DNA of 42,220 nt, taken from IMG/VR virus record IMGVR_UViG_2061766007_000300; one strand, given 5' to 3'. Shown here in pieces: positions 1,365-40,275 of the stretch. The DNA is from an uncultured virus (IMG/VR IMGVR_UViG_2061766007_000300) (Duplodnaviria; Heunggongvirae; Uroviricota; Caudoviricetes). Both the position numbers and the translations under genes were made by a program. The notes beneath the pieces are model-generated. The model had not been told where the DNA came from. It saw only the letters and a program-made list of their open reading frames with translations, and did not search any database. The stretch's first letter is position 1. Each line of letters starts with the position of its first letter.

Positions 1365-3725
1365 TTAAATCTTTTCTAATCCTACAACATACTCGTTATT
1401 ATTTAGTTTAATAACTTTTACGCCCTGCGCGCTACGAGAAAGAGTAGGAACTTCAGCTAGCGCGAATCTAATTTGGGATACATTAGAAGTAACTATTAGG
1501 TCTACTTCTGCGCCAATGCCCTCAAATGCGATTACTTCGTCTCCTTCAACTGTACCTTGGAGTTTACTTCCTTTAGTATTACGATTAGTATATGAGAACT
1601 CAGAGATAGGAGTTTGCTTTGCCAAGCCCTTCTTCGTTACAGATATAATCGTCTTTGTCTCATTACTTAGAGGGCGCGCGCCTTGTACGTATGCACCAGC
1701 ATTTAATTTCATACATTTAATACCTTTTGCAATACGTCCAACTGCCGCCACATCATTTGTCTTAACCATAATAAAGTTTCCATCGGAAGAAAGAATACCA
1801 CAATCAGTATCGTCATTACCGAAGAAAACCGATACAATACTATCGTTATCCTCTAAATTAATCGCTCGCGCGCTATTACCACGTTTAAGGTAGTACTCGG
1901 ATAAAAGCGATTTCTTTAAGAGTCCATTTCTAGTAACAAAATAAATATTTTTATTTGTATTTTTTGCGTAGATAGCGGCGTTACAAATATTTTCATTATT
2001 TATCGTAGTCACATATTGGGAAATATAAGTTTTCTCGTTAATCGGGAGGTCACTAAGTTTTACTTGGAAGAAGTTCCCACGATTAGAGAAGAATAGTGCA
2101 ACGTCGGTTGTATCTCCGATTTCTGTCCCAACTACATATTCTCCTTTTTCTAGCTTAAGTTTTGTACCTACTCCGCCACGTCTTTGAGAGTATAGAGTTG
2201 AACTTTCGGTTACGAAAATTCCGCCTTTATTTGTAAAACTAAGAATAAGATTTCTAACTTCTGTAGGTTCTTCTTCGCTTTCGGTTGAGATATTTAGAAT
2301 TTTAGTGCGGCGCGCATCACCGAATTTAGCCGCTACATCTTTCCATCCTTTAATAAGTTCATTATTAAATAGAATTTCGTCGCCTAAAATTTGTTCGAGC
2401 GCACTAATTTTTTCAAGTAAGTCATTTTTTTCGCCGTACAGCTTAGTTACCTCCAGATGGGCTAATCGGCTCAATCGGAGTTCGAGTACTGCTTTCGCTT
2501 GGTCAGCATCAAGAAGAAATTCCTTTTGAAGTCGCGCACTAGCTTCTGCGGTAGAACTCGACGTCTTAACTACTTCGACTACTTCTTCAATACGAGCAAT
2601 ACAAACTAGAAGTCCATCGATAATATGGACGCGGAACTTCATCTTATTCAGATCATGTTCAAAACCACGACGATATACAACCTTCTCGTGGTCAATGTGC
2701 GCTTGAAGTGCCTCGCGCCATGTAAACACTTTAGGATATTTACCACCATCAAGCATAGTAAGGTTAATACCATAGTAATACTGGAGCGAAGTATTTTTAT
2801 ATAAATACTTTAATACCTTATCTGGATTTGCTTTCTTTGTAAGATAAATCTTAATCAACGGTGTCGCGCCAGTTAAGTCATTAAAGCGTTCAATTCCAGG
2901 GTTGTCTTCTGATTCTATGAGTTCTTCAAGCTGTTTACAAATAGTATTTGTATAAACAGAATAAGGAATTTCTTTTACTACAAAGCATCTTTCAGCCGCA
3001 TCAAATTCAACAACACTTCTCAACTTACAAGCTGGTCCATTACCAACACGCAGGCTTTCCTTTACTTCATCTGCATTAAGCAAAATTGCACCAGTGGCAA
3101 AGTCGGGCGCGCAGTAAATATCATCAAAATCGCAGTCCGGATTTTGAATAAGATTAATAAGTGCATTATTAAGTTCTTTTAGATTAAACTGCGGGATAGA
3201 ACTTGCAAGACCTACTGCGATACCGCTTGTACCATTGCAAAGATTATAGAATCCTTTTGATGGAAGAACTGCGGGGTATTGTTTAGTATTATCATAGCTA
3301 TCGCGCCACTCTGTAATAGTATCTTTATCAATATCTGTAAAAAGAATATTAGAAAGTGCGGACAGACGACTTTCTGTATAACGCATAGCAGCCCAGTTAC
3401 CACTTTCAATAAGAGAGCCAGAGTTACCCTTTACATCTACGAGTGGATAGCGCATAGCGAATCTTTGTCCGGCGCGCATAATAATTCCTTCACAGCTTGA
3501 ATCGCCATGAATATAGAAATCTGCCATAGCCATACCAACAGCATTGGCGGTTTTCTTATAAGGATTATTATGGGTAAGTTTATGAAGAAGCATTGAATAA
3601 AATATTTGGCGCGCAGAAGGCTTGAGTCCATCGCGCGCGTCAACAAGTGCGCGAGACTGAATTACCATGCCCGCGTATTGTGCAAAAGATTCTTTTATTA
3701 TATTATTTAATTCACTCATTTTCAT
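1365..3725 (-). CDS. gyrA: Type IIA topoisomerase/DNA gyrase subunit A
   Basis: DARDGLKP, YIHGDSS, AAMRYTE catalytic Tyr, GyrA-box QRRGGVG, C-terminal pinwheel repeats. Confidence 0.95.
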   Translation of the reverse strand: MKMSELNNIIKESFAQYAGMVIQSRALVDARDGLKPSARQIFYSMLLHKLTHNNPYKKTANAVGMAMADFYIHGDSSCEGIIMRAGQRFAMRYPLVDVKGNSGSLIESGNWAAMRYTESRLSALSNILFTDIDKDTITEWRDSYDNTKQYPAVLPSKGFYNLCNGTSGIAVGLASSIPQFNLKELNNALINLIQNPDCDFDDIYCAPDFATGAILLNADEVKESLRVGNGPACKLRSVVEFDAAERCFVVKEIPYSVYTNTICKQLEELIESEDNPGIERFNDLTGATPLIKIYLTKKANPDKVLKYLYKNTSLQYYYGINLTMLDGGKYPKVFTWREALQAHIDHEKVVYRRGFEHDLNKMKFRVHIIDGLLVCIARIEEVVEVVKTSSSTAEASARLQKEFLLDADQAKAVLELRLSRLAHLEVTKLYGEKNDLLEKISALEQILGDEILFNNELIKGWKDVAAKFGDARRTKILNISTESEEEPTEVRNLILSFTNKGGIFVTESSTLYSQRRGGVGTKLKLEKGEYVVGTEIGDTTDVALFFSNRGNFFQVKLSDLPINEKTYISQYVTTINNENICNAAIYAKNTNKNIYFVTRNGLLKKSLLSEYYLKRGNSARAINLEDNDSIVSVFFGNDDTDCGILSSDGNFIMVKTNDVAAVGRIAKGIKCMKLNAGAYVQGARPLSNETKTIISVTKKGLAKQTPISEFSYTNRNTKGSKLQGTVEGDEVIAFEGIGAEVDLIVTSNVSQIRFALAEVPTLSRSAQGVKVIKLNNNEYVVGLEKI

Positions 3726-3912
3726 ACCTTACCATAATTAATCCGTAAGATGGTGGAAGTAGGCCAATTTCATATATTTCTTCAGTAGTTAAAATTTTTA
3801 AAAAAGAATAACTATATAATTTTTCTTTTAAAAAGGTCCAAATATCTACTGTAAAAATATCACCTTTCTTAAATTTATAAGTTAAACTTTCTTTATTATT
3901 TAATTCACTCAT
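3712..3912 (-). CDS. Hypothetical protein whose N-terminus MSELNN duplicates that of GyrA
   Basis: 66-aa ORF overlapping both neighbouring genes. Confidence 0.6.
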   Translation of the reverse strand: MSELNNKESLTYKFKKGDIFTVDIWTFLKEKLYSYSFLKILTTEEIYEIGLLPPSYGLIMVRYENE

Positions 3913-4352
3913 TCTTCTTCGTCCTCTTCGTCATCATTCCATTCCCACTCATCCTCTTCTACATAATATACGCCTACTGCTTCTTCATCATATTCTTTAA
4001 AAGGCATACCGTATTTACATTCCCAAGGAGTTCCAGGGTATACAAAATCATTATATTTTTTTGTATATGTAGTTACTGTATTCTCACCTTTATAATGAGT
4101 AATAATATCATAATTATATTCTTCGTCAGTTAAAAGTTCTGGTAAATTCTCTTCTACCCATTTCTTTGGTGCAGCGATACACCAATTAACAGACATATCA
4201 ATATTACCAGTTACTACAACAAGTTTATTTTCTTTAACCCAATTTTCATTACTAAATTTATGAGAATTTATTAATTCTTCATATTTATCTCCAATAGGAT
4301 AATCTCTACCGCTGAACCAATTATTAAAAGAAAAATAAATTATATTATCCAT
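3909..4352 (-). CDS. Hypothetical protein with acidic C-terminus
   Basis: 147-aa ORF with GAGG RBS. Confidence 0.75.
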   Translation of the reverse strand: MDNIIYFSFNNWFSGRDYPIGDKYEELINSHKFSNENWVKENKLVVVTGNIDMSVNWCIAAPKKWVEENLPELLTDEEYNYDIITHYKGENTVTTYTKKYNDFVYPGTPWECKYGMPFKEYDEEAVGVYYVEEDEWEWNDDEEDEEE

Positions 4353-4527
4353 TTTTTGGTTTCCTCACTTTTACACCTTCATAAAATCCTTTTAAATAAT
4401 CATAATCTAATTCAAATTGATTTTGTTCACAAAATATACCATCATAAAAACCCCTTAAAAAACTATAAGTTGGTTCTATCAGTCTAAGTGGTTGTTGATT
4501 AATTTTATTTAAAAGTTCTCTTGTTTC

Positions 4528-4713
4528 TTACCCAGTTTTTTCCTATAATTGCTTAATTGCATTTACAGCATCTTTGCCGAGCTGTTGAACATCACATCTA
4601 TATTTATCTTCATAAGGTGTATTTATACAATACGGGCAATCTTTTTTATCACAATAATGATATATTATATTATGACCTTTGCAGAGTAATTTATCAATCA
4701 AATATTCATTCAT
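4528..4713 (-). CDS. Small Cys-containing hypothetical protein, code 15
   Basis: ATG overlaps the gyrB stop; 62 codons with one TAG. Confidence 0.4.
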
Positions 4714-5090: not shown

Positions 5091-6215
5091 CAACGTAATC
5101 CAATGTTTCCATTGGCGCAGACTATATGTTACTCACTTGTGTGAGAATACTCTTTCCACCTACGTACCAATAGTAAGTGTACTCTCCTTCCGGGAGATAG
5201 TCGTTACAGGCTTCATTTATTAACCCAAATGCCTTGTTTTTTCTTATATATTGGAAGGTCTTTATAGGTGCGGCCCCACAATATTTGTTGTAATGTTTGA
5301 TAATTACATCNNNNNNNNNNGTCTTTTGTTTTTTCTTGTATATTGGGAGGTTTTTATAGGTGCGGCCCCACAATATTTGTTGTAATGTTTGATAATTACA
5401 TCTATCTTTATAATCATTATAGATACTGCGCGCATCTTCGTTTACATATCGTTCGCGCATTTTAATTACTTCTTCTGAAGTAAATTTTGCTATTTCAGAT
5501 TTACTGCCATCAGTTGCATGGAACTTATAATAGTTTAGATTTTCTTCGGTATAAACTTCTGGTTTGATTTCTTTCCAAGTTGTTCCGTCCCAAATACTTG
5601 CGAAAGTATCAAAACTAACTTTATCTTCAAATTGCTTATAAACTTCTTTTCGACGCATATGCTCATCATAGCATTCTCTTATATAAGCAACATCTTGATT
5701 TGTTAATTTAGTTCTACCGTTATTTTCTCCTCTATTATTGCCGCCACCAGCGCTACAATTATAACCAATTCCTTTAAATGTATTATAATATGCTATCCAA
5801 TAAATTTCTTTCTCATCGAGTTCTTCTAATTTACATTCTTCGATGATTTCAAATTTAAAGGCATCTGCGCCGTATTTCTAAATAGCAATTTCTATTGGTA
5901 TATCTTTTTTAGTTTTATGTTCTTGGAAACGTCTTTCTATATTGTTACTTTGTCCAATATAAGACTTTCCATTACTGATTTTTGTTATTTTATAAATGCC
6001 TATCATTGCGGCACCTCCACAATTTAGTAGGCTTGGGTTAATTCTGATTCCCACGGGATCTGCGTGCCCGCAAAGGGTTTAGCTTCTCTTACCACCATAA
6101 TCTTTCGATTTAGTTGCCCGTTAGCCTCTATATATAAGTAGAATATGTAAACCATCACTACAAATTTTTGAGACCCCGTTGGTTAACGGAAAAGTATTTA
6201 CAGACAGTTTTATTT
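5091..6215 (-). mobile_element. Group I intron in gyrB
   Basis: Exon 1 ends in U (GAU), intron ends in G; P7 elements ACGACUA and AUAUAGUC near the 3' end; splicing restores DADSDGYHI in frame. Confidence 0.9.
5213..6006 (-). CDS. Intron-encoded GIY-YIG homing endonuclease, code 15; 3' end duplicated across the gap at 5311-5320
   Basis: MIGIYKITKISNGKSYIGQS; in-frame TAG in IAI(Q)KYG; late-promoter motif at 6133-6140. Confidence 0.85.
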
Positions 6216-7685
6216 ATCTGAGTCAGCGTCGGTACAGATGGCTAGCCGTCCGTACCGCAACTTATTCTTGTCGTATTTCCCTGGCACAATATTCATCGCA
6301 CTCAAAAGAAGTTTAATTTCTTCGTTCTCAAAAATCTTTTCTTCGGGATTTGACAAGCAATTAATAATCTTACCCCTAATTGCTAAGATACCATACTTCT
6401 TGTAATCACGTGCCTGAGCCATACCGCCCATAGCACTATTACCTTCAACAATAAGAAGAGTTGAGTCTTGTCCAAGAAACTCCGCATCCTTTAACTTATC
6501 AGATGCAAAAACCTTTTTCTTTTGATTCTTTTCGATTTCCTTTGAAGCATTAAGAACTTGCTGGCGCGCCTTCTCCGCCGCAGCTTCCGCGCGAGCTACC
6601 TTCTGGAGTAATTCAACTACTTGGTCAAAATCAGCGCGCCGCTTTATATAAAAATCTTTAAGGGCGTTTGTTATTGCTGCTGATGTTGCAGTACGCGCCT
6701 CTGGATTGGCAAGAGCTGTCTTTTGTTGGTTTGTAAATTGACCCATTCGTACTTTAACACTTACAAATCCGTCCAATACATTACGAATAGTTTCACCTTC
6801 ATACTTTTCTTTACTTAAACTATTAAAAGTTTTAGTAAGAGAAGTTTTAAAACCACTTATAAAAGCGCCGCCGTCTGGCATAAACAAATTATTTGCGTAA
6901 CCACGAATTTGGCCGTTTTTACTTACCCATTGAAGTGCAAGTTCAACTTTACAATCATCTGTTTCATATTGATATGAAAATGGTGCGGATAATCTATTTT
7001 CTTTAGACAACCCATCTATAAGACCGCTTTGAGAATAAAACTCTTCTTGCGCGTCGTCAACATTTAAAATAATATGTAGTCCTGTAGAGAACATTGCCAT
7101 TTCTTTAAGTGTCGCGCGCAAAGCATCTATATCAATGAATATATCTCCATACACACGTGCATCTGGTTTATATTGAATCAATGTACCAGTTTCATCATTA
7201 CCGGGATGCTCTTTTACATCACAATCAGCATGCGCGCCCTCTTCGTCAGAGTGGAAGGACTGGAAGTATATTTTATTATCACGATATACTTCTACTGATA
7301 ACCACTCGGCTGTATGACAAACAATTTTATTACCCTCGCCGTTAATACCTACCGCGCTAGAATATACACCTTCTGTATGCTTACCACCTGAGTGTGGAAT
7401 AAGAAAAGCAGCAGTAAGTGAATTGATACCATCATCACGAATACCAACTGGAATACCGCGCATATTATCTTGCACCCAAATTTCTCTATTTTTAGTATCT
7501 AATTTAATAATTAATTTAGGATTTTTAGGTTTATATACTTCATACTCGTCTTGAACATTTACAATAAGTTCGCGCAATCCGAGATTAATAGCTTCTTGAC
7601 GGTCTGCAGAGAGATACATTCCTATCTTTTCTCGGAACGCGCGCCCTGCGGATAGAGAAACTATATCATTCGCCGTATAATTCAC
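6216..7685 (-). CDS. gyrB: Gyrase/topo II subunit B, exon 1
   Basis: GTG start after GGAGG; GHKL motifs (ELIVN, DNMRGIP, HSGGK), TOPRIM VEGNSA, IRGKIIN, ICTDADSD. Confidence 0.93.
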
Positions 7686-8421
7686 GAGTGATTTCCTCCA
7701 ATCTTTCTTCAATATCTTCTAAATAAGTTATATAATATAGTTTTATATTATTTTTTTGACAATAATCAAATTTTTCTTTATCACGCCTTTGTCTTTCAAT
7801 AAAAGATTCTTCTGTATTCCAACTATCTACTCTCCATTTAAAATGAATATCACCTTGGTATTCTATTAAACCTAATAAATCATTATTTTCATTAAATAAG
7901 GCAAAATCAAATTGATAAGGTTTTGTTATACAAATAAAATCTTTAAATGAATACTCACTTTCATATTTATAATGATGGCTATTTAACCATTTAGTAATAG
8001 TTACATTGCCTACTGAATTAATACAACCACAAGATTTAGTATCTCCAAAATTTAAATATTGATGTTGTACTTCACATACATTACCACAGTCGCACTGACA
8101 TTTCCAAAGGCGTCTTCTTTTTCCGTTCGCTCCAGTAATGAAACCGGCTTCTTCTAAAACTACTAACTTACCAAATCTTAACCCTGTTAAATCTCCGCCT
8201 CTTTGTAGATTAGATTGAATTGCCCTTTCTTTTTGATAGCAACCGCAAGATTTGGTATTACCAGAGCGTAAATGTTTTCCTAATACTATAACTTCATTAC
8301 CACAATCACATTTACATTTCCACATGGCACGTCCGTCTTTACTATTCGGTGCACGCTCTATTACGGTTAAATACCCATATTTATTACCAATTTCATTTTT
8401 TAAACTAGACATATTCATCAC
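7666..8421 (-). CDS. Free-standing homing-type endonuclease (CDCG repeats plus PD-(D/E)xK-like domain)
   Basis: Two WKCxCDCG...KSCGC modules, FDFAL...IEYQG; late-promoter motif at 8428-8435; overlaps the gyrB start. Confidence 0.85.
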   Translation of the reverse strand: MMNMSSLKNEIGNKYGYLTVIERAPNSKDGRAMWKCKCDCGNEVIVLGKHLRSGNTKSCGCYQKERAIQSNLQRGGDLTGLRFGKLVVLEEAGFITGANGKRRRLWKCQCDCGNVCEVQHQYLNFGDTKSCGCINSVGNVTITKWLNSHHYKYESEYSFKDFICITKPYQFDFALFNENNDLLGLIEYQGDIHFKWRVDSWNTEESFIERQRRDKEKFDYCQKNNIKLYYITYLEDIEERLEEITRELYGE

Positions 8422-11919: not shown

Positions 11920-12957
11920 TTACCCGCCCTATTTCTAATTAAGTAAAGTAGTAGCTCCATACTACTCTATCCAATATTTTTCTCGTTCTCCTAATTTCTC
12001 TTTTGGAACTTCTTCTAAAATCTAAAAAGTAAAATTCCAAATTCCATCGCGCGCCATCTTAGTGTGGAGAGAGCTATGAGCAATAGTTCCGACGCCATAA
12101 GCCGACTTACAATGTTCCTACCATCTATTATTTATATCGGTAGACTTCCCAATATAAATTTCTCCAGTAGGAATATAAGTTATAATATAAATCCCACTAG
12201 GTTTTTTATTATTTAAAACTCTCTTTTCCATTTCTAATAATGGCCGTCTAATATAGCAGTCAAACGCGGCTTTATGAAGAACCTCTTTATTATTAAATTT
12301 ATGCTCTATTTCTTTTATTATTTTTAAATCTTCTATTTCATTATCTGTAAGCTATATACGATAAAAATCGGTATTTTCCTAAGCCTCTTTTTCTCGTAAT
12401 ACCTACTAGTTAACTACTTCACGCCGCTTACGAAAATCTTCAAGTATTTCTAATATATCTTTATATTCCTATTCTGCTATTTCCTATTTATTTTTATATT
12501 CCTATATAAAATTCTCGGCGGCCGCCCTCTAATCAGATATATATTTCTCTATTTCACTGTCTATCTCTCTTTTTCTATCATTATACATATTCTTGAAATA
12601 GTCTTTTATCTACTATTCCTAAGATTCCTTATAACTTCCGAGTTCGCGCGAGATAGAATCTTTTGCGGCCTATGTAGCAGATTTAGAATATTCTAACTAA
12701 GCTTTTAAATTATCCTAATAATCTTTATATTCCTAAAATAATTTTTCTTTTTTCTCTATATATTCTTCCTAAAGACTCTCATTCCTTTCTTTAAAAATAT
12801 TATTTAATTCGTCATGTACGTTATTTATATATTTCTATTTTTCTTCTTCTAAAATATTTATTTCTTTTAGATAATTTTTATTTCTTTTTATATATATTAT
12901 AAGGAAAAAGAGTAATAGAAAAGAAATAATAGAGAGTCCTATAATAATATAACCCAT
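11920..12957 (-). CDS. Membrane-anchored coiled-coil protein with C-terminal GIY-YIG domain, code 15
   Basis: Hydrophobic N-terminus, long E/K/Q-rich helix with many TAG, SGIYIITYIPTGEIYIGKS; 346 codons. Confidence 0.8.
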
Positions 12958-28041: not shown

Positions 28042-28308
28042 ATGTATTATATTGTTATTGAAATTTAGAAGTCATTAATAAACAACGAAGTTAATGTCGC
28101 TTAGATAACTACTGTACATCCTACTCGTAGTGAAGCAGAACAAAAATACCATACAGTATTATCTTACGCCGCAGTTTCTGGCCTTTTATCTCATTCTGCG
28201 ACAATGTTGGATGAGAAGGGCTATTATATTAAGAGTGAATGCTATGTAACTAATCCGCCCGAGCCAGAACCGGAGCCAGAACCCGAAGTAAATAATGGAA
28301 AAGAATAA
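28042..28308 (+). CDS. Hypothetical protein with PE-repeat tail, code 15
   Basis: 89 codons ending PEPEPEPEP. Confidence 0.65.
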
Positions 28309-28310
28309 AA

Positions 28311-28345
28311 TAAAAGACTACGTATTAAATACGTAGTCTTTTTTA
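28311..28345. terminator. Bidirectional intrinsic terminator
   Basis: AAAAGACTACGTAT-taa-ATACGTAGTCTTTT between convergent units. Confidence 0.85.
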
Positions 28346-28879
28346 TTAATTATTATATTTTTTATCTTTCATAAACTCTCGTGCCTAAGCTTCTAACTAT
28401 TCTAATGTTCCATTATTTGCAATAACCATATCGTATAAATCTGGATTAAAATTCTCATATTTATCCGCACTATTATCTAAACTTTCTTGCGACGCGCGCT
28501 AGATAAGTATAGCTTGTGCATTAAAAGCAGTACGGAACTTTTCTATCTCAGAAGGTTCCCTTACATCAATAAAGAAAATTAATCTATCACTATCATAATC
28601 TCTCATGTCCATCCAACGACAAATAGTTCTTATATAGTTACTTACATCTTTAAATGGATAATTATTATAGTCTATTAAAAGCTATTTTAAATCCGCTAAA
28701 AACTTGCGGTCTTTCGGTTCTTTGTTTCCATCCCATCCACACTACTTTGCGATTTTTTTAACTCCGTCAATAGAAGAATAAATTCTTACATAAACGGGAT
28801 TTAGCGCAAAGCAGTAGTTCTCAAAAGTAGTTTTACCACTTCCAAGTTAAGGAAGGCCATTAATTATATAGACCTTCAT
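28346..28879 (-). CDS. P-loop (deoxy)nucleoside monophosphate kinase-like protein, code 15, with an in-frame TAA at codon 11
   Basis: MKVYIINGLP*LGSGKTT; KIAK(Q)CGWDG..DRKFLADLK; FFIDVREP; IANNGTLE. Confidence 0.75.
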
Positions 28880-29840
28880 TTATCATCACCTACCTTAGAT
28901 ATTCTAAATTTAATTTATTATAATCAGTATATTTAATTTCTATTAAAGGAATATTATTTAACTAACAATATTCTTTTTTTAATAAATCTCTTTTGTGTAA
29001 TTCTTGTAATTCTAAATCATTGTACCATGGCGCGAGGTGCATTTTTTTATACTCATCAAAATAATGTTGTTCACCCTAATATTCTATTAAACCAATTAAT
29101 TTATTTTCTGTATCAAAAATAGCAAAATCAAAATATAATGGCAATGGAGAATCTTTAGAATAGTCTCTTAAATTAGTAAAAGAAAATTGAGTTTTAAAAT
29201 TACATTTAAGCTCTTGTAAAATGCTCTATATTTTCTATTCACCTTTCGACTTTAAACACCCACATGATTGACATAATCCACTACGTAGTGATTTAGAAGT
29301 AGTTATTTTTAAATTACCGCAATCGCATTGGCATAACCACAAAAATCTATTATCAGAGTTTTTTCCAACATAAGAAAGAACTGTTAATTTACCATATTTG
29401 TTTCCAGTTTCATCTACAAAATTATTTTCTATCTTTTTCTATTTTGCACATTCATCACAACATTTATTTTTTCTTCTGTTTAAATTGGTTGTAGATAAAT
29501 ATATTATATTCCCACATTTACAAATACATTTCCAAATTCTTGATTTTTTCCCATCTTTTTTATTATCTTCTTTAAATAAAGAATCTATATATAAATTACC
29601 AATTTGTTGTCCAGCTAAATCTCCACCAGCGCGCGTAATATTAGACTCTTTAGCGCGTTCTCTCTACAAACATCCACATGATTTTGTATTGCCGTTGCGT
29701 AATGAAGTCCCAGAAACATCAACTTCATTACCACAATCACATCTACAATGCCAATATGCTTGCCCTTTACGACTTTCTACTTTATATAATACAGTTAAAC
29801 GCCCGTATTTATTGCCAATTTCATTTATAATTCTACCCAT
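28860..29840 (-). CDS. Free-standing homing-type endonuclease (CDCG repeats plus PD-(D/E)xK-like domain), code 15
   Basis: 327 codons; paralogous to 489..1208 and 7666..8421; late motif at 29867-29874. Confidence 0.82.
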
Positions 29841-29922
29841 AATAATACCTCTTTTTTCTTTCTAAATATAAGTGATAGTTATTATAAATGGGTATACTAA
29901 AATGGATACCATTTATCATATT

Positions 29923-29961
29923 TTATTTTCCTGGGAGGCCATTAATCAGGTATATTCTCAC
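29923..29961 (-). pseudogene. Orphan 5' end of the kinase gene (MRIYLINGLPGK*)
   Basis: GGAGG RBS plus GTG; peptide matches the downstream kinase N-terminus up to the P-loop. Confidence 0.7.
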
Positions 29962-30166
29962 GTATTTCCTCCTTTTTTAAATGGACATCAAGTCTTAAAA
30001 TTTCTTCGGTTTCTGCATCCCTTTCATAATCAACGCGATAGATTGTCCATTTTTTACTAAGTAATTCTAAAATTTTCTCATTTTGGATTTCTATTTCTGT
30101 AATAGTATCTTTTGGAAGATAAGTAGTATAATATAAAGTATGCCCTTTAGTTCCATTTTTCATCAT
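29942..30166 (-). CDS. Hypothetical protein
   Basis: 74-aa ORF with AGGAG RBS. Confidence 0.6.
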   Translation of the reverse strand: MMKNGTKGHTLYYTTYLPKDTITEIEIQNEKILELLSKKWTIYRVDYERDAETEEILRLDVHLKKEEIRENIPD

Positions 30167-30173
30167 TATATAT

Positions 30174-30401
30174 TTATCTCCTAAGTTCTACTAATTGTAT
30201 ACTATCTAATTTTTGTTTTAAGTGATGCGCGGCTTCTTCGTTCCAAGCATTATAGGATTCTATTGTCATTAGAGCTTCGGTTAAATCGGCTATAAGTTTA
30301 TCCTAGCACTTAGGGTATAGGCGCGCCTAGTATGGACAATTATCGCAAGGCTAGTTATTATCTGTACATCGTAAACCTATATCAATTAACTTCTCATACA
30401 T
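30174..30401 (-). CDS. Small Cys-rich hypothetical protein, code 15
   Basis: 76 codons; C...CDNCPY...C. Confidence 0.55.
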
Positions 30402-36199: not shown

Positions 36200-36334
36200 G
36201 GGGGCGTGGTGGAATCGGCAGACACAACGGACTTAACGGTATGAGGCAAACCGTAGTAGGGTTATCACCTACCATATCGACCAAATCCGTTTTGCTTTAC
36301 GCGAGTGTGGGTTCAAGTCCCACCGCCCCTACCA
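36200..36334 (+). tRNA. tRNA-Leu(UAA) interrupted by a 47-nt tRNA-like insert (36237-36283)
   Basis: Class II cloverleaf, anticodon stem ACGGA/TCCGT, loop CTTAA|AA after removal, GTTCAAGT T-loop, ACCA end. Confidence 0.85.
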
Positions 36335-37727: not shown

Positions 37728-37836
37728 TAGACGCGTGAACAGCGAATTTAGGATGAATAGCTTAACGGTTTAAGCATCTATTATTTAATAGAAGACTGTC
37801 GGTTCAAATCCGGCTTTACCCGCACATTTGCGTCTA
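37728..37836 (+). ncRNA. Y-RNA-like element enclosing a degenerate tRNA cloverleaf
   Basis: TAGACGCG/TGCGTCTA closing stem, ACAGCGAAT motif, inner D arm and GGTTCAAATCC T arm, 6-nt anticodon loop, no CCA. Confidence 0.65.
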
Positions 37837-38318: not shown

Positions 38319-38481
38319 GGGAATGTAGCTCAGCCCGGTAGAGCCCGCGCCTGTAGTAAATTGGTGTAATAGCGCACATTGGGGCCGGTGATTCGTTCAC
38401 AGTCCCGAAGGAACAAGTGCAATTCTTGTATTTACTTCCATAAGCGCGTTGTCGTAGGATCGAAGCCTACCGTTCCCGCCA
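38319..38481 (+). tRNA. tRNA-Asn(GUU) interrupted by an 86-nt nested tRNA-like insert (38355-38440)
   Basis: GGGAATG/CGTTCCC-G-CCA; stem CGCGC/GCGCG; loop CTGT|TAA after removal; G73 fits Asn. Confidence 0.8.
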
Positions 38482-40188: not shown

Positions 40189-40275
40189 GGGTAGATATGC
40201 CTAGTAGCGAGGGCCCGTGACTGTAAATCACGTACACAAGAAACATCGATGGTGCAATTCCATCTCTGCCCACCA
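40189..40275 (+). tRNA. tRNA-Tyr(GUA)
   Basis: CGTGA-CTGTAAA-TCACG, long variable arm, ACCA end. Confidence 0.9.

Follow-up and report, generated by a model that had tools for sequence, protein, structure and literature searches.

The closest described counterpart of the locus reported here is the gene 39/mobA/gene 60 element of phage T4, reportedly presented by Bonocora et al. in 2011. The T4 bypass insert blocks self-cleavage by MobA and persists after loss of the homing endonuclease (HE), as stated in a passage of Manning & Atkins (bioRxiv 10.1101/2022.08.31.505936). The present locus lies in a stretch of 42,220 nucleotides (nt) from an uncultured virus of the Caudoviricetes (IMG/VR record IMGVR_UViG_2061766007_000300), which as a whole is referred to as the window. 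Here, six bases, TAA CTT, interrupt the P-loop codons of a predicted kinase gene, directly downstream of a putative HE gene. From the comparison of sequences, the insert may shield the target from the endonuclease and be passed by the ribosome in a +6 stop-hop, as a miniature of the T4 mobA/gene 60 case; this reading is given slightly less than an even chance.

The likeness to T4 is found in the arrangement. In both cases, the HE gene adjoins a conserved gene of DNA metabolism, an untranslatable insert which begins with a stop is placed in a conserved coding sequence at or near the (here presumed) endonuclease target, the insert is kept in phages without the endonuclease, and a piece of a gene is split off upstream. 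On the contrary, the gap has 6 nt here and 50 nt in T4, there is neither a conserved take-off hairpin nor a long nascent-peptide signal, and the codons for take-off and for landing are not readable by one tRNA under normal wobble. The HE of the window appears to belong to another family than MobA (PHROG 374/559, with a DUF2726-like nuclease domain), the target appears to be a kinase P-loop instead of a topoisomerase, and the upstream piece is a putative dead stub of 11 codons, whereas that of T4 is a functional subunit. By analogy, the element of the window would work like a miniature mobA/gene 60 cassette without being a member of that family, set apart by its codons, hairpin, nuclease family and target.

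Synthetic stop-hops, reportedly obtained by O'Connor et al. in 1989, share with the locus the order codon-stop-codon, the resumption in frame and a product two residues shorter than the readthrough product. They differ in being artificial constructs with codons read by the same tRNA, whereas the landing codon here needs a G-U pair at the middle position. Passages of a 2016 review state that nine nt of such constructs give one residue and that natural in-frame stop hopping has no known occurrence (PMC5009743); no natural case published later was found in open-access papers and bioRxiv. The same review mentions the terminase of Streptomyces phage Hau3 as a short, UUA-linked candidate bypass, proposed and unproven (PMC5009743). 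Like the present case, the Hau3 terminase has a short coding gap in a phage gene for which a hop was proposed; unlike it, the gap concerns a rare UUA in high-GC hosts and a change of frame, and here the gap is in frame, led by a stop, and located in an AT-rich phage that reads TAG as Gln.

In the free-standing HEs of T-even phages (seg and mob), immunity is provided by polymorphism of the target site. Similarly to these, the HE of the window is intergenic, placed just upstream of its presumed target gene and sporadic among close relatives, flanking markers appear to be co-converted, and resistant target variants seem to exist, for instance the substitution cluster of the related locus L028 described below. 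The resistant variants of seg and mob are silent substitutions, whereas the variant here would be an in-frame, stop-bearing insertion in an essential motif. MobE and nrdA are mentioned in a passage of the bioRxiv preprint cited above (10.1101/2022.08.31.505936).

An interrupted kinase gene and its relatives

The locus is read on the minus strand. Its features are the following, with the basis of each in brackets.

30166-29942, minus strand: open reading frame (ORF) of 74 amino acids (aa), upstream of the putative relic fragment (read from the sequence)
29959-29974, minus strand: ribosome-binding site (RBS) AAGGAGG at 29974-29968 and GTG start at 29961-29959 of the putative relic kinase 5' fragment (read from the sequence)
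29923-29961, minus strand: putative relic 5' end of the recipient's kinase, GTG-RIYLINGLPGK-TAA, with TAA at 29925-29923 (sequence and kinase homology)
28860-29840, minus strand: predicted free-standing HE gene, 326 aa, seven TAG codons read as Gln; its stop overlaps the kinase start region (translation and profile matches)
28884-28897, minus strand: native ribosome-binding region of the kinase, TAAGGTAGGTGATG, common to relatives without the endonuclease (alignment)
28850-28879, minus strand: kinase codons 1-10, MKVYIINGLP (strand beta-1), with ATG at 28879 and CCT at 28852-28850 as proposed take-off (sequence)
28844-28849, minus strand: six-base insert, stop TAA at 28849-28847 and CTT at 28846-28844 as proposed landing codon (sequence, relatives and run contigs)
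28349-28843, minus strand: kinase body GSGKTT...KYNN (GSGKTTFENYC at its start), five TAG codons read as Gln (profiles and structure model)
28343-28348, minus strand: tandem TAA TAA, true stop of the kinase (read from the sequence)
28312-28342, bidirectional, no strand assigned: terminator-like hairpin directly behind the kinase, kept in relatives (sequence and alignment)

An earlier reading, made from the letters of the window without database searches (hereafter the sequence-only reading), had described an upstream piece GTG-RIYLINGLPGK-TAA (29961-29923), an endonuclease gene between this piece and the kinase, and a second start MKVYIINGLP-TAA-CTT-GSGKTT. All three are present as it described them, the endonuclease ORF at 29840-28860 and the second start at ATG 28879. 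It had also taken the rest of the kinase frame to be intact, which is correct in so far as no other lesion occurs; the endonuclease and the kinase body, however, stay open only when TAG codes for Gln (seven and five in-frame TAGs, respectively). A late promoter that it had placed behind the upstream piece does not stand out from the background, with 20 promoter-like sites against 13.9 +/- 4.1 in shuffled sequences. The spacer between this piece and the endonuclease start has 82 nt.

The interrupted gene (28879-28346, minus strand) appears to encode a P-loop kinase resembling the deoxynucleoside monophosphate (dNMP) kinases. Its body matches PF21448 with 24.8 bits, below the cut-off of 27.1, and phrog_139 with E=3.5e-8. 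An AlphaFold2 (AF2) model, made for L002, a relative free of the insert, using 19 homologues, reached a predicted local distance difference test (pLDDT) score of 87 and shows a P-loop kinase fold. Foldseek searches with this model returned the P-loop nucleotide kinases 3lw7, 3ch4 and 7xnd, and the T4 dNMP kinase 1dek at rank 5, with a Foldseek probability of 1.00 for 3lw7, 3ch4 and 1dek. Strand beta-1 comprises residues 2-8 of the model and helix alpha-1 begins at residue 14. Residues 10 and 11, within the Walker A loop, are those separated by the insert. Searches of PDB sequences with the HE and with the kinase profile gave nothing useful. In a distant kinase clade (L025/L026, near position 3001), a TAG (Gln) codon is located within the Walker A loop, NG-Q-GGSGKTT.

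Viral and metagenome contigs supplied relatives of the kinase, and the P-loop was readable in 36 loci, with L017 and L038 excluded for want of a 5' end. Among them, 11 readable loci belong to the clade sharing at least 70% identity with the window, and five of these (L001, L010, L013, L015 and L018) carry GGC CTT CCT TAA CTT exactly; L001 and L010 are one 83,932-nt contig in two collections. The codon after the insert is AGA in L001, L010, L013 and L018, AAT in L015 and GGA in the window. The other six (L002, L011, L012, L008, L014 and L009) are free of the insert and read GGC/GGT CTT CCA AGA/AAA, that is, GLPRSGKTT or GLPKSGKTT. Thus the proline codon is CCT in every insert-bearing allele and CCA in the insert-free ones. 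All 25 of the more distant loci have an uninterrupted GxxxxGKTT/GKDS without the insert. L010 and L011, with and without the insert, come from the same metagenome record series, and therefore both states co-occur.

The sequence-only reading had named an assembly error in TAACTT as one outcome that would overturn it. The five related loci and contigs of runs from four other studies (X5, X6, X7 and X8) all keep the six bases, and such an error is therefore rejected. The X5 contig covers 28340-30171 with 37 substitutions, no gaps and the insert kept; those of X8 (28303-29479), X6 (28808-29246) and X7 (28724-28876) have no gaps and no listed indel at 28844-28849. The evidence from runs consists of contigs, from which rare variants get dropped. 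A degenerate insert pattern had no matches in genome contigs, and an exact 15-mer scan of viral contigs returned 42 loci, of which one is a kinase (the L001 contig) and the others are chance matches. No other gene of the window is convincingly broken by a single TAA; nine pairs of neighbors in the same frame are ordinary adjacent genes with an RBS-like sequence after the stop.

Selection on the kinases was estimated as the ratio of non-synonymous to synonymous substitution rates (dN/dS) after Nei-Gojobori (NG86) with TAG read as Gln, for the insert-bearing alleles of the window, L001, L013 and L015 and the insert-free L002, L008, L009 and L014; the duplicates L010, L011 and L012 and the partial L018 were left out. 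The ratio is 0.034 for L001-L013, with 13 synonymous and two non-synonymous changes, all of them 3' of the stop, and 0.095 for L001-L015. For window-L001 and window-L015 it is 0.127 and 0.169, respectively, both with dS >1.4. Pairs of insert-free alleles gave 0.03-0.08. In the ten codons before the stop, the window and L001 show three synonymous codon changes and two from Ile to Val. A second TAA, a TGA or a frameshift was found in none of the compared alleles. These values point to purifying selection on the insert-bearing alleles on both sides of the stop. Both sides are therefore probably translated, in the same frame and from the ATG, and ribosomes would have to pass the stop. In this respect, the need for some way past the TAA, proposed from the sequence alone, has been strengthened, while the simple pseudogene offered there as a refuting option agrees poorly with the low ratios of the insert-bearing alleles (0.03-0.17) and the lack of further defects.

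The window represents a phage recoded from TAG to Gln, as long ORFs run throughout when TAG is read in this way. Among 44 ORFs that do not overlap and have at least 110 aa, TAG makes up 138 of the 351 Gln codons, and the stops are TAA in 39 and TGA in five. With TAA as the normal stop of this phage, general ochre suppression is unlikely. It is followed by C in only three of the 39, and the context at the insert is thus atypical for termination. Among the kinase alleles, TAG alternates with CAG and with CAA at identical codons. No suppressor tRNA with the anticodon CUA is among the tRNAs of the 42-kb window. The use of TAG is uneven: the 345-aa ORF at 11920-12957 (minus strand) holds 22 TAGs and some long ORFs none, for instance 1365-3725 and 6210-7712, which may reflect a partitioning into early and late genes.

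The public runs in which the stretch occurs are gut metagenomes of cattle or other animals. A kinase profile search of genome contigs gave two distant matches, in contigs of metagenome-assembled genomes of Clostridia and Oscillospiraceae, a weak hint at a host of the class Clostridia. Close relatives were not found among GenBank phages, where just short matches to the HE repeats occur.

The homing endonuclease and the history of the locus

The ORF of 326 aa matches phrog_374 (E=4e-47), phrog_559 (E=2e-29) and phrog_9084, a "homing endonuclease" (E=1e-17), and these PHROG families are annotated as HNH or homing endonucleases. Against the nuclease-related DUF2726 it scores 21.8 bits, below the cut-off of 24.7. 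Its motifs suggest three Cys-rich DNA-binding repeats followed by a C-terminal restriction-endonuclease-like domain. From these matches, the gene at 29840-28860 is most probably a free-standing HE.

The distribution of the HE is sporadic. None of the 11 related loci has it upstream of the kinase, and tblastn found no homologue in the fetched flanks of L001, L010, L013, L015 and L018, those of L015 and L018 being short. The best relative at kinase loci in tblastn is that of L028, with 47% identity, directly upstream of a kinase (39% identical to that of the window) and with its stop overlapping the kinase ATG. In IMG/VR, 549 HE relatives were confirmed, the best of them 39% identical. Of these more distant HEs, 84 loci were fetched, and none contains a kinase within 2.5 kb. 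Therefore, the adjacency to the kinase is specific to this lineage of endonucleases.

The L028 kinase also carries a conspicuous change at the corresponding position. Compared with its HE-less kin L027 and L031, nine of the 15 bases are changed in GTT AAC GGN AAR CCT, a stretch which adjoins the insert position on its 5' side. In the following 146 bases there are six to nine changes (Fisher p about 1e-6 to 1e-7, a descriptive value because the 15-nt window was chosen after the alignment had been viewed). The HE-less relatives differ among themselves in none to two of those 15 bases. Target-site changes clustered beside a free-standing HE are a classical sign of self-immunity in the seg and mob genes of T-even phages.

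Further paralogues of the endonuclease were noticed. L028 has two, at 1973-2950 and 3763-4674 (47% and 36% identical to that of the window, respectively), one on each side of the kinase. In the contigs G001 (L085, 934-2001) and G002 (L084, 1282-2028), HE paralogues are placed directly upstream of PHP-domain polymerase-like and GyrB/topoisomerase-like genes, and the N-termini of both target genes look intact. From their position beside replication genes, these paralogues seem to have the same life style as the HE of the window.

The upstream piece and the second start bear on the history. The fragment at 29961-29923 represents a different allele (RIYLINGLPG), with its own Shine-Dalgarno (SD) sequence and a start overlapping the preceding 74-aa ORF, as would be expected of a resident gene. 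Beyond GGAA, which reaches 4 nt past the insert position, it no longer resembles the kinase. Run X8 has a 1-nt deletion at 29932 within the fragment, which is therefore not constrained. It is thus read as a probable decaying relic of the invaded kinase of the recipient, which breaks off at the presumed cut site. A search for relatives of the preceding 74-aa ORF, meant to lead to an intact kinase of the recipient, found none.

The second start had been understood earlier as a replacement N-terminus that was re-coded and carried by an endonuclease cassette. The alignment does not bear this out: the second start, with its ribosome-binding region TAAGGTAGGTGATG, has its homologue in the usual start of the kinases of L001, L002 and others, in which a small zinc-ribbon gene or RNase H is located upstream of the kinase. 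It would then be nothing else than the ordinary start of the donor lineage.

These observations can be combined in the following scenario. An HE targeting the kinase P-loop DNA would have invaded a rumen phage that reads TAG as Gln and cut the kinase of the recipient in the P-loop codons. Repair would have used homology on the 3' side and been illegitimate on the other, copying in the HE gene of the donor together with the 5' end of its kinase, and the first 11 codons of the recipient would have been stranded as a dead stub at 29961-29923. TAA CTT at the presumed cut site of the donor-type kinase would make the site uncuttable, so that the element spares its own genome. The insert would also circulate alone among related phages, by short gene-conversion tracts. 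The layout of the locus, the spread of the insert, the selection on the kinase and the linkage of HE and kinase are seen in the sequences, whereas the place of cutting, the immunity and the hop are inferred.

Two of the related loci bear on the movement of the insert. In L015, which has the insert and lacks the HE, an RNase H ORF (3-524) ends in ...KYNKLNSDFIRQVMQNEG, and the endonuclease of the window ends in ...DYNKLNLEYLRQVMINEG. This RNase H carries approximately 14 codons of the C-terminal tail of the HE; 16 consecutive nt are identical in both and lie equally far from the kinase ATG. The tail looks like the footprint of a deletion of the endonuclease which fused its end to RNase H, as in a hit-and-run event. 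In L001, the 30 nt on the 5' side of the insert show two differences to L015 and seven to L002, and the 492 nt on the 3' side show 126 to L015 and 41 to L002 (Fisher p=0.0018). This switch from L015-like to L002-like sequence indicates a recombination breakpoint at the insert, as expected if the insert spreads by short conversion tracts from a break there.

Proposed ways past the stop codon

The reading as a natural in-frame stop-hop, with CCU UAA CUU decoded as one proline and the six-base gap acting as a portable HE shield that moves between rumen phages in conversion tracts some dozens of bases long, whether or not the HE goes along, is put forward tentatively, its probability being clearly below one half. 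The hop would proceed as follows. Peptidyl-tRNA-Pro would stall on CCU while the A site holds UAA-C, a poor termination context. The tRNA-Pro (anticodon NGG) would then let go and re-pair on CUU, by C-G pairing, a U-G wobble and an unchanged third base. Decoding would resume at GGA, CCU UAA CUU would yield a single proline within the canonical GLPGSGKTT, and the product would give the N-terminal peptide VYIINGLPGSGK.

Several observations agree with a hop. That skipping six nt restores the Walker A sequence GLPGSGKTT, as the sequence-only reading had noticed, is borne out by the insert-free relatives with GLPRSGKTT and GLPKSGKTT. The invariant GxxxxGK[ST] spacing of the family is obtained in the window only by this skip, and in an alignment of 20 sequences the two extra columns of a readthrough product are empty in all 19 insert-free homologues. 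In the window and in all five insert-bearing loci, CCU is followed by UAA, and the third bases of CCT and CTT match in these alleles. A proline in the P site slows termination.

Other observations weigh against the hop. CCU (Pro) and CUU (Leu) are not synonymous, and re-pairing needs G-U at the middle position; in cases of the gene 60 type, one tRNA reads both the codon of take-off and that of landing, according to a passage of bioRxiv 10.1101/2022.08.31.505936. Re-pairing in the P site has some latitude, with larger deviations in yeast mitochondria, as another passage of this source states (bioRxiv 10.1101/2022.08.31.505936). The hairpin CTTCC-TTAACTT-GGAAG, on which the sequence-only reading had relied, exists in the window, but it is not part of the minimum-energy fold and is not conserved, being weakened in L001 and L015. 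The change 28841 T>A also weakens it in three of the four independent sets of window-like contigs (X5-X7), and the insert-bearing alleles share no conserved take-off hairpin at the insert. With ten residues made at the stop, there is no room for a nascent-peptide signal, and no SD-like element stands out near the insert. Unaided stop-hops in Escherichia coli have a low efficiency. The identical nine nt across alleles could be due to recent lateral spread instead of a selected hop signal. Finally, the AF2 model of a readthrough product keeps the fold, which gives no discrimination from a hop.

Two variants were tried and rejected. A hop from CUU to the second CUU, with matched codons and a gap of 9 nt, would give NGL-GSGKTT and lose both the proline and the Walker A spacing. 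Re-initiation after the stop would lack an in-frame start codon ahead of GKTT, and the UUG/GUG present out of frame is not conserved.

The main rival is readthrough of UAA, in which a near-cognate or phage-encoded suppressor tRNA decodes UAA and CUU is read as Leu, so that a working kinase with a P-loop two residues longer, GLP-X-L-GSGKTT, is produced; the history of HE and immunity would remain the same. The frame is identical on both sides of the stop, the fold of the AF2 model is kept (mean pLDDT 87.0 vs 87.1, with a local drop from 93 to 84 in residues 11-20), the phage already suppresses UAG and carries odd tRNAs, and Pro-UAA-C is a weak termination context (TAA followed by C in 3 of 39), all of which would suit readthrough. 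On the other hand, a tRNA with the anticodon UUA was not found in the window, and the CUA suppressor expected of phages reading TAG as Gln cannot read UAA under the established wobble rules. Strong ochre suppression would be costly where TAA ends 39 of 44 ORFs, the product lacks the canonical GxxxxGK[ST] spacing, and none of the 19 insert-free homologues has any residue in the two extra columns. Readthrough is thus considered unlikely, while still deserving serious attention. Lower in probability stands the case in which the kinase is inactivated by the insert, itself a scar of repair or a mark of immunity, and the ORF appears conserved through recency or recombination with intact alleles. The mosaic recombination among alleles is evident, the insert lies within an essential motif, and the gene may be dispensable. 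Against this stand the three deeply diverged insert-bearing lineages (dS >1.4) with low dN/dS and no second lesion, the changes between L001 and L013 (13 synonymous and two non-synonymous, all 3' of the stop), and the ten codons 5' of the stop, which also change as a coding sequence. An inactive kinase is accordingly regarded as quite improbable.

Removal of the six bases before translation, whether as an RNA micro-intron, through an endonuclease and a ligase that act on the loop, or in a fraction of the DNA molecules, is very improbable. At least one phage tRNA gene has a 47-nt insertion in its anticodon loop, so that an activity cutting and joining RNA may be present in infected cells. No splicing system is known to take out 6 nt, though, conserved structure around the insert was not found, and the contigs of the four runs hold no variant with a 6-nt deletion, which is a weak argument as contigs drop rare variants. 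Splicing of the upstream fragment as exon 1, with the HE within an intron and ...GLPG joined to SGKTT, was the third option of the sequence-only reading and is barely credible here. The fragment does have its own SD and start and ends in P-loop codons. The absence of a visible group I core, noted at that time, agrees with the Rfam search of 28300-30200 (E<=10), which returned no group I or group II intron and no other relevant family. Furthermore, the sequence 5' of the HE ORF amounts to just 82 nt and there is none on its 3' side, as this ORF overlaps the kinase start; U is missing at the possible 5' splice sites; the fragment has the 1-nt deletion of run X8 and is unconstrained; and four related loci carry the insert without the fragment or the HE gene. 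The remaining probability belongs to mechanisms beyond those listed.

Apart from these alternatives, the consensus fold of the insert-bearing alleles pairs the RBS region of the kinase, UAAGGUAGGU, with GGCCUUCCUUA (28884-28897 with 28847-28858, minus strand). The inserted UUA lengthens this helix by three pairs, and its 3' arm resembles the anti-SD end of the 16S rRNA. The insert might therefore also damp the initiation of the kinase through this pairing.

The tRNA genes of the window include some unusual forms. The gene at 36200-36334 (plus strand; Rfam 44 bits) has an insertion of 47-50 nt in its anticodon loop and a long variable arm. Depending on the point of excision, its anticodon is UAA (Leu), UCA (opal-reading) or CCA, and the insertion lacks the length of a group I intron. 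A tRNA-like gene at 37751-37823 (plus strand; Rfam 46.6 bits) has a six-base anticodon loop, UAUUUA, and one acceptor mismatch, and ARAGORN assigns it no anticodon. It was rejected as a reader of UAA because its loop yields no UUA anticodon, and the incomplete contigs G001 and G002 gave no homologue. At 38319-38481 (plus strand), the intron mode of ARAGORN predicts a tRNA-Tyr(GTA) with an 86-nt intron, which is not reported by Rfam at the gathering score; a second, uninterrupted tRNA-Tyr is located at 40189-40272. The G001 contig, about 65% complete, has 9-10 tRNA genes, none of them for Pro or a suppressor.

Meaning for bypass elements and recoded phages

Natural in-frame stop-hopping has so far been shown only with synthetic constructs. 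The case of the window is small and directly testable, as it offers nine bases, an enzyme whose activity can be assayed, and natural alleles of co-occurring phages that do and do not carry the gap. A coding gap linked to the conflict with an HE would extend the self-immunity principle of T4 mobA/gene 60 to another nuclease family, another gene and another scale. If the stop-hop is true, minimal bypass elements need neither a hairpin nor a nascent-peptide signal, and they may be common marks of HE immunity hidden in "broken" phage genes. For annotation this is a warning, since genes of recoded phages that seem to be broken by one stop may be intact.

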